A DNA stretch of 26,267 bases. Origin: Candidatus Bathyarchaeota archaeon (GTDB taxonomy: Archaea > Thermoproteota > Bathyarchaeia > Bathyarchaeales > Bathycorpusculaceae). Location: positions 1 to 26,267 of the forward strand of contig JACUTN010000001.1 of the NCBI GenBank assembly GCA_014859805.1. Reading direction: 5' to 3'. Below the pieces are notes generated by a model. The model saw only the letters and a program-made list of their open reading frames with translations, made no database searches and was not told where the DNA came from. This document shows, one piece after another, positions 3,547-19,432 of the stretch; position 1 is the first letter of the stretch; every line of letters starts with the position of its first letter. The position numbers were made by a program, and so were the translations under genes.

Positions 3547-3585
3547 CTTTTAGAACATATCGGTTTAATTTGAATTGGTGAGATT

Positions 3586-4005
3586 TTGATTCTGAAAAGA
3601 AACATCGCCTTGGTGGCGCATGACAATAAGAAAGATGATTTGGTGGAGTGGGCTGATTTCAATAAAGAAACATTGGCTCTTCACAACTTGTACGCAACTG
3701 GAGACACCGGGAAAAGAATTATCGAGAAAACTGACCTAAGGATTACTTTACTCAAAGGTGGATCTTATGGTGGAGACATGGAGCTTGGCGCTTTGATTGC
3801 TAACGAGAAATTGGATTATTTGATTTTCTTCTGGGATCCTTTGCAATCTCTTCCTCACGATGTCGACGTTAAGGCGCTTCTCAGGATAGCCGTCTTGTAT
3901 AATGTGCCGACTGCTTGTAATAGGGCGACAGCGGATCTAATAATTTCCAGTCCATTGTTTCACAGTCAAGAATACAAGCCGAAAAAGGAACGAGCCAAAA
4001 AGTGA
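3586..4005 (+). CDS. mgsA: Methylglyoxal synthase
   Basis: Motifs IALVAHDNKK, YATG.TG, GGD, LIFFWDPL, PHDVDVKALLR and NVPTACNRATAD match the MgsA family. Confidence 0.92.
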   Translation: MILKRNIALVAHDNKKDDLVEWADFNKETLALHNLYATGDTGKRIIEKTDLRITLLKGGSYGGDMELGALIANEKLDYLIFFWDPLQSLPHDVDVKALLRIAVLYNVPTACNRATADLIISSPLFHSQEYKPKKERAKK

Positions 4006-4078: not shown

Positions 4079-4108
4079 AAGGCTTTTAAGAATTGAACCC
4101 TTTGAATA
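4079..4108 (+). promoter_or_regulatory. Promoter block shared by the two CBS genes (copy 1)
   Basis: AAGGCTTTTAAGAATTGAACCCTTTGAATA, 29/30 identical to 14267-14296; contains a purine-rich BRE-like segment and a TTTTAAG TATA-like box. Confidence 0.7.
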
Positions 4109-14266: not shown

Positions 14267-14296
14267 AAGGCTTTTAAGAATTGAATCCTTTGAATA
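14267..14296 (+). promoter_or_regulatory. Promoter block shared by the two CBS genes (copy 2)
   Basis: AAGGCTTTTAAGAATTGAATCCTTTGAATA; one mismatch to 4079-4108. Confidence 0.7.
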
Positions 14297-19339: not shown

Positions 19340-19432
19340 GGGTCCGTGGCGCAGCTTGGATAGCATTGTCCCAGAAAGCGCGTCGGCCTTCTAAGCCGAA
19401 GATCCTGGGTTCAAATCCCAGCGGACCCGCCA
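19340..19432 (+). tRNA. tRNA-Arg (anticodon TCT) with a 15-nt D-loop intron; CCA encoded
   Basis: Acceptor GGGTCCG/CGGACCC, D-stem GCGC/GCGC after intron removal, anticodon stem TCGGC/GCCGA with loop CTTCTAA (TCT at 19390-19392), T-arm CTGGG-TTCAAAT-CCCAG, G discriminator, CCA. Confidence 0.95.
19362..19376 (+). other. Non-canonical tRNA intron at position 20a/21
   Basis: AGCATTGTCCCAGAA; bulge-helix-bulge with central helix TTGG(19356-59)/CCAG(19371-74) and bulges AT|A and AA|A. Confidence 0.85.

Follow-up and report, generated by a model that had tools for sequence, protein, structure and literature searches.

A methylglyoxal synthase gene with an altered phosphate pocket in an uncultured Bathyarchaeia archaeon

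Methylglyoxal synthase (MGS, MgsA) is usually viewed as an overflow valve of bacteria that senses phosphate, and its phosphate pocket, TGTTG/SGP, as invariant. A 26,267-nt stretch of archaeal DNA (GenBank assembly GCA_014859805.1, contig JACUTN010000001.1; here called the window) carries an mgsA-like gene in which this pocket is altered, and the locus raises the question of whether the gene encodes a genuine MGS and what the altered residues would do in it. The archaeal origin of the window is seen from TiaS, Tsr3, and an archaeal-type gene set, and the named relatives are Candidatus Bathyarchaeia. The initial annotation had read the gene as an archaeal MgsA with its catalytic residues kept and its phosphate-binding residues replaced, and had proposed altered phosphate inhibition or a different substrate. 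The gene, its start region, and its active-site segments are as follows; residues are numbered by the phmmer alignment to 1b93, which has a constant offset of +7 (window residue + 7 = E. coli MGS).

3586..4005, + strand: mgsA, methylglyoxal synthase homologue (139 aa, TTG start, TGA stop), identified by HMMs, phmmer, and the AF2 model
3577..3582, + strand: GGTGAG, putative Shine-Dalgarno-like motif read from the sequence, 3 nt 5' of the TTG start
3619..3633, + strand: HDNKK, codons 12–16; His12, Asp13, and Lys16 correspond to H19, D20, and K23 in the alignment to 1b93
3697..3711, + strand: TGDTG, codons 38–42, the phosphate loop (TGTTG in the family); Asp40 replaces E. coli T47
3757..3768, + strand: GGSY, codons 58–61 (GGT GGA TCT TAT), aligned with E. 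coli S65, G66, P67, and M68
3775..3777, + strand: Asp64, aligned with the catalytic base D71 of E. coli and invariant in all sets compared
3835..3867, + strand: DPLQSLPHDVD, codons 84–94; Asp84, His91, and Asp94 correspond to D91, H98, and D101 in the alignment to 1b93

The protein is clearly an MgsA, and not the MGS-like domain of a carbamoyl-phosphate synthetase or PurH. It scores 188.6 bits against NF003559 (NCBIfam equivalog cut-off 84) and, with a narrow pass, 154.9 bits against TIGR00160 (equivalog cut-off 146.9); it also matches Pfam MGS and 11 solved MGS sequences (phmmer E-values 1e-44 to 7.5e-25), among them the PDB entries 1vmd (1e-44) and E. coli MGS, 1b93 (1.5e-37). The AF2 model, built from a 69-sequence alignment (pLDDT 89.7, pTM 0.86), superposes on both 1b93_B and 1egh_A, the latter a complex with 2-phosphoglycolate, with rmsd 0.8 A over 124 residues, and its top 26 Foldseek matches are all MGS. 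The PF02142 MGS-like domains of carbamoyl-phosphate synthetase and PurH have the same fold (Foldseek E about 5e-4 to 4e-3, TM 0.5–0.65), but their identity in structural alignments is 12–19%, compared to 41–57% for solved MGS enzymes. Identity to E. coli MgsA (1B93, 1EGH, 1IK4) is about 51% over the 124 aligned residues, with the same fold at 0.8 A. The TTG start agrees with the lengths of many close homologues, which are also 139 aa and have 100% query coverage. The source genome (G000; 1.05 Mb, 84% complete) yielded a single MGS gene, as did each of three closed relatives, CP070749.1 (G301, 1.09 Mb, pocket D-G-S-H), OY970072.1 (G302, N-G-P-Y), and OY970176.1 (G303, G-D-S-Q), where the pocket is given as the residues at positions 47, 65, 67, and 68. 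Judged from its sequence, 3586–4005 is a real, selectively maintained MGS gene of an uncultured Bathyarchaeia archaeon.

The catalytic part of the active site is intact, as the initial annotation had stated. All six catalytic residues D71, H19, H98, D101, D91, and D20 are present (as D64, H12, H91, D94, D84, and D13, respectively), and so are the phosphate ligands K23, T45, T48, and, by its backbone, G66 (as K16, T38, T41, and G59); the whole of this set is shared with E. coli MgsA. In the E. coli enzyme, D71 acts as the catalytic base; K23 makes a salt bridge to the phosphate, a hydrogen bond to O3 being also assigned within the H19/D20/K23 set (PMC7843640). The differences lie in two short segments. 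Codon 40, at 3703–3705 within YATGDTG, is GAC (Asp), and codons 55–64 encode LLKGGSYGGD, so that D40, G58, S60, and Y61 stand for T47, S65, P67, and M68; compared to E. coli, the Ser hydroxyl of the second segment is gone, Pro is replaced by Ser, and Met/Leu by Tyr. The E. coli motifs that had been given for the comparison (YATGTTG and LSGPMGGD) match 1b93, and the codons together with the alignment bear out the replacement of T47 by Asp, S65 by Gly, and P67 by Ser. Beside the catalytic base, E. coli Q72 and Q73 are replaced by Met and Glu.

The phosphate-binding residues of MGS are K23, S65, and T45–G49, and the G66-P67 loop covers C1/C2 of dihydroxyacetone phosphate (DHAP); in five aligned MGSs, from E. 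coli, B. subtilis, C. difficile, Thermus sp. GH5, and O. profundus, the active-site residues, including T45–G49, K23, and S65, are highly conserved (PMC7843640). Unlike those five, the window protein does not keep all the phosphate-binding residues, and the full motif of TGTTG with S65-G66-P67 is replaced by TGDTG with GGS. Hence the same five enzymes answer in the negative the question of whether such substitutions are common in characterised MgsA. In our view the full TGTTG plus SGP motif is conserved without being required for catalysis; other lineages, too, vary at position 47.

The protein also ends early compared to E. coli MgsA, its tail running about 13 residues beyond the core where that of E. 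coli has 19, and E. coli Arg150 is without an aligned counterpart. In E. coli MgsA, a hexamer, the C-terminal Arg150 pairs with D20. The short tail that had been pointed out is thus correctly described relative to E. coli, but is nothing unusual: the Thermus sp. GH5 and T. thermophilus (2XW6, 1WO8) and B. subtilis (6F2C) enzymes are likewise compact, with no long tail of the E. coli kind, the solved Thermus and B. subtilis enzymes being shorter still, and shorter C-termini are described in thermophile MGSs (PMC7843640).

To place the pocket substitutions within the family, the results of an exhaustive HMMER search were clustered at 50% identity and 150 cluster representatives were compared. 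The family strongly prefers Thr at position 47 (119/150), Ser at 65 (139/150), Pro at 67 (136/150), and Leu at 68 (110/150); position 47 varies in about 18% of these diverse representatives, with His, Ala, Asn, Ser, or Gly. The D/G/S/Y combination is seen in only one of the 150, a fragment bearing the window's own two motifs. The opposite holds for the 120 closest homologues (83–95% identity, nearly all metagenomic): position 47 is Asp in 99, Asn in 12, Gly in five, Glu in four, and Thr in none, with Gly at position 65 in 107 and Ser at position 67 in 106, whereas H19, D71, D91, H98, and D101 are invariant and D20 is Asp in 119 of the 120. Being uncommon among the representatives and near-fixed among the close homologues, the substitutions are not chance noise. 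The top two matches of the exhaustive search (P0122 and P0123; 287 and 275 aa) contain two MGS stretches each and are apparently tandem-duplicated or fused MgsA domains.

A survey of 301 genomes of the class and 60 species-level loci reveals two groups of Bathyarchaeia MgsA. Canonical proteins are about 145–150 aa long, carry TGTTG and SGPLGGD, and score 209–225 bits on NF003559; although they come from the same class and family as the second, "short" group, to which the window protein belongs, they form a separate clade nearer bacterial sequences. With the trait columns left out, two ML trees recover the short clade as monophyletic and apart from the canonical one (SH-aLRT 90–93); the nearest bacterial relatives of the short clade, Bacteroidales and others, show 61–66% identity. 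Four pocket sets occur in it: Thr or Ser at position 47 with S-P-Y, which is near-canonical; Asn or Glu at 47 with Gly or Ser at 65; Asp at 47 with Gly, Ala, or Ser at 65, the type of the window; and Gly, Gln, or His at 47 with Asp or Glu at 65. Other changes specific to the short clade are Q72M and Q73E (E. coli residues) beside the catalytic base and E80N, F85Y, and F125L elsewhere. Hence, the suggestion that TGDTG and GGSYGGD mark an archaeal clade is upheld in a richer form, the clade being the short Bathyarchaeia one with several pocket types, and on these alignments and trees the rebuilt phosphate corner is confined to one archaeal (Bathyarchaeia) clade.

The accompanying statement that MgsA is mainly bacterial is overstated, since an MGS above the cut-off is found in 40 of the 301 sampled genomes of the class and in Haloferax volcanii. 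MGS activity has been measured in haloarchaea (PMC7278568), and Mgs, GloA, and GloB are already annotated in biogas-reactor Bathyarchaeota MAGs (PMC6010159). In the literature searched, we found no mutagenesis of T47 or S65 and no report of the Bathyarchaeia pocket variant or of an acid swap between positions 47 and 65; archaeal MGS homologues as such, both by annotation and by haloarchaeal activity, are already known.

In several genomes the gene complement is more complex. Two (G160 and G229) contain a canonical and a short-clade copy each, the latter with the near-canonical pockets S-S-P-F and T-S-P-Y. Two MAGs have two short-clade mgsA genes, D-A-S-Y with G-D-S-Q in SPRUCE 440 (L045 and L075) and Q-D-S-R with S-H-P-M in MFD03726.bin.1.205 (L078 and L086); the paired copies could be genuine paralogues that differ in role, or the bins could be mixed. 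In one genome (G232, 92% complete), a T-S-P-Y short-clade mgsA (L041, G232:C21:70480-70859) is split by in-frame stops into ORFs of 74 and 83 aa, and no intact MGS was found there; this looks like gene loss in progress.

Per-column parsimony counts were made for 72 species-level rows of the short clade and 27 rows of canonical Bathyarchaeia. In the short clade, positions 47, 65, 67, and 68 change 12, 13, 7, and 15 times, respectively, against a column median of 1; in the canonical clade all four show no changes. No changes in either clade are seen at H19, D20, K23, T45, G46, T48, G49, G66, G69, G70, D71, D91, H98, and D99, and D101 changes just once, in the canonical clade; variation within the short-clade active site is thus limited to the four positions. 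The replacements there are polar or small, never hydrophobic. An acid is found at position 47 in 12/72 rows and at 65 in 34/72, at both in 0/72, and at neither in 26/72; the swap of the acid between the two positions involves only two to four independent transitions on the tree, too few for a test, so that this pattern is descriptive only. Within the Asp-type group dN/dS is 0.02–0.15, and kin pairs with dS about 2 still encode Asp47, by GAC or GAT; mgsA is under strong purifying selection. Since 47, 65, 67, and 68 turn over while the other pocket columns show about zero changes, one sub-site of the pocket has come under a different, lineage-variable constraint, with the catalytic core frozen.

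The direction of the change within the clade may be read in two ways. The T/S-S-P-Y group adjoins the G-D/E-A-H group in quick ML trees (121 columns), which are poorly resolved, and a single clade of all remodelled forms is not rejected by the AU test (p 0.175); given both results, a single origin and reversion are each compatible with the data.

Of the explanations considered, we favour, by a modest margin over even chances, a working enzyme converting DHAP to methylglyoxal (EC 4.2.3.3) with a re-tuned phosphate subsite. From the family, fold, catalytic residues, clade specificity, purifying selection, and turnover described above, we infer both the substrate and a kinetic consequence, the latter probably an altered affinity for phosphate or DHAP. 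The conversion of DHAP to methylglyoxal and phosphate is most likely retained, with Asp64 as the base, helped by His12, His91, and Asp94; all five genomes checked encode triose-phosphate isomerase, so DHAP is available. In the window sub-lineage, Asp and Gly take the place of the hydroxyl donors Thr47 and Ser65; sister lineages have Gly at 47 and the acid at 65, or carry Asn, Glu, or Gln at 47. A carboxylate beside the phosphoryl group should weaken the binding of dianionic phosphate, both of the substrate phosphoryl group and of inhibitory Pi; with two hydroxyl donors lost and a carboxylate gained, a lower affinity for dianionic phosphate is expected. Alternatively, the carboxylate may act as the acceptor in a hydrogen bond donated by a protonated phosphate oxygen, as carboxylates do in some phosphate-binding proteins. 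Kinetically, one would expect a shift in the Km for DHAP, and with it in the sensitivity to phosphate or the pH profile.

The main competitor, possible although we consider it rather unlikely, is an ordinary MGS in which the side chains at 47, 65, 67, and 68 are dispensable and drift near-neutrally with no meaningful kinetic effect, the backbone amides, K23, T45, and T48 being enough to hold the phosphate. It would account for the four columns changing as often as those of surface loops, and for the 18% variation at position 47 across the family; most of the observed neighbours of Asp (Asn, Gly, Glu) are single-nucleotide steps from GAY, and Asp, Glu, Asn, Gln, Gly, His, Ser, and Thr are all tolerated across 47, 65, and 68, which could equally mean that the side chains are irrelevant. 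However, drift does not readily explain why Asp is held across synonymous saturation in the Asp-type group, why only polar or small residues come in, with the acid never at both sites, or why the canonical sister clade, from the same class, shows no change at any of the four columns. The altered behaviour of the four columns points to a constraint that is shifted rather than simply lifted.

Less probable still is a neofunctionalised enzyme of the MGS fold, whose carboxylate or carboxamide in the former phosphate subsite would fit the pocket to a different leaving group or substrate, e.g., an unphosphorylated or differently esterified ketol, so that substrate and product would not be the DHAP/methylglyoxal pair; here the acid might protonate the leaving group by general-acid catalysis. 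The loss of two hydrogen-bond donors to phosphate with the gain of a negative charge fits this reading, as do the movement of the charge between two adjacent positions rather than its disappearance, the clade-specific Q72M and Q73E next to the catalytic base, and the co-occurrence of two short-clade pocket types in the single MAGs SPRUCE 440 and MFD03726.bin.1.205. Yet the remaining phosphate ligands (K23, T45, T48, and the G66 backbone) are invariant, both equivalog HMMs are still passed, the gene is the sole MGS homologue in the source genome and in the three closed ones, no neighbouring gene indicates a new pathway, and two types in one MAG could come from a binning mixture. We give similarly low credence to the more general proposal that the mobile carboxylate at 47/65 reflects changed chemistry, whether another leaving group or substrate, or the use of the carboxylate as a general acid or as a proton acceptor towards protonated phosphate; if true, it would make the enzyme a phosphate-insensitive or pH-gated methylglyoxal source in small-genome, amino-acid-scavenging Bathyarchaeia of peat and soil.

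It is very improbable that the enzyme is devoted to biosynthesis, providing the methylglyoxal for 6-deoxy-5-ketofructose-1-phosphate (DKFP) in the archaeal route to aromatic amino acids, as had also been suggested in the initial annotation. AroB' (PF01959) is common in the class (137/301 genomes), occurs in every sampled genome with a canonical Bathyarchaeia MgsA, and accompanies some short-clade forms, namely T-S-P-Y (G304) and G-E-A-H (G305), in both of which chorismate synthase is present as well, and those of G095 and G152. Many AroB' genomes, however, are without any MGS, and M. jannaschii runs the DKFP route without an MGS homologue (PMC7278568), which we count against this role. A search of the source genome for the pathway genes found no AroA' (TIGR01949), AroB', DAHP synthase, DHQ synthase, or chorismate synthase; as this genome is only 84% complete, the weight of the absence is borne by its closed relative CP070749.1. 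Neither AroB' nor chorismate synthase was found in the closed chromosomes CP070749.1, OY970072.1, and OY970176.1 (D, N, and G/D pockets), nor in four further genomes with a remodelled MGS (95–100% complete). Both genes being present in some short-clade genomes and missing in others, the pocket type does not track the AroB' pathway. Without AroB' and chorismate synthase, methylglyoxal would have no shikimate pathway to enter, and a DKFP role for the window mgsA is ruled out; from its gene content and that of its closed kin, the organism appears to have no shikimate route of any kind to aromatic amino acids. The same lack of chorismate synthase and AroB' is observed throughout G000, G184, G118, G124, G062, and G301–G303 (1.0–2.3 Mb; three are single-chromosome records), which implies aromatic amino acid auxotrophy in these lineages.

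The series of pockets gives the locus a wider interest: a large uncultured archaeal clade, abundant in peat, soil, and sediment metagenomes, has kept the machinery of catalysis and rebuilt the phosphate-reading part of the pocket in several ways. If the kinetics differ, T-S-P-Y, N-G-P-Y, D-G-S-Y, and G-D-S-H form a natural variant series for dissecting the coupling between phosphate binding and activity, and could supply a phosphate-insensitive MGS for 1,2-propanediol engineering; if the kinetics are unchanged, T47 and S65 are dispensable. Either way, the attractive link of the window MgsA to the archaeal DKFP aromatic pathway is removed.

ORFs within 4.5 kb of mgsA were clustered for 120 loci, and no gene partner common to the remodelled clade was found in this interval on either side; nothing in the neighbourhood backs a pathway role. 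Genes that recur near mgsA are of the housekeeping kind (ribosomal L35Ae, an Ssb-like OB protein, Alba, HTH regulators). A VOC gene adjoins mgsA in one species only among the 120 loci: in G184, a VOC/glyoxalase-superfamily gene (L033:1477-1884, - strand) lies divergently about 100–180 bp 5' of an N-G-P-Y mgsA, and no other neighbour seen in the clade looks metabolic. With respect to methylglyoxal detoxification, a VOC-family (PF00903) gene is present in 5/5 genomes checked; these VOC proteins cannot be assigned to glyoxalase I, as they score 23–27 bits against TIGR00068 (glyoxalase I), far below its cut-off of 120. Matches to DJ-1/PfpI (glyoxalase III) are weak, except in G062, and a complete methylglyoxal bypass, of MGS with glyoxalase I/II or III, is at most a possibility.

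In the window itself, mgsA is preceded by a type IIG restriction-modification gene and a zinc-ribbon ORF and followed by a CBS-pair gene with its own 30-nt upstream block. This block, AAGGCTTTTAAGAATTGAAYCCTTTGAATA, occurs at 4079–4108 and 14267–14296, 5' of two CBS-domain genes; the copies are identical at 29/30 positions while their flanks diverge, and the block is probably a shared promoter or operator. The position of the first copy, just past the mgsA stop, suggests that mgsA is transcribed alone, and the gene looks monocistronic. The restriction-modification gene (206–2869, + strand), directly upstream of the mgsA region, encodes an 887-aa single-chain type IIG enzyme with an HSDR_N nuclease-like N-terminus, an Eco57I/MmeI-type N6 methylase, and a TaqI-like specificity domain; GC in the first 4 kb of the window is 0.36 vs. 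about 0.42. Further along, a tRNA-Gly(CCC) is called at 19340–19432 (+ strand); at 93 nt it is above the standard tRNA length and may carry an archaeal intron.
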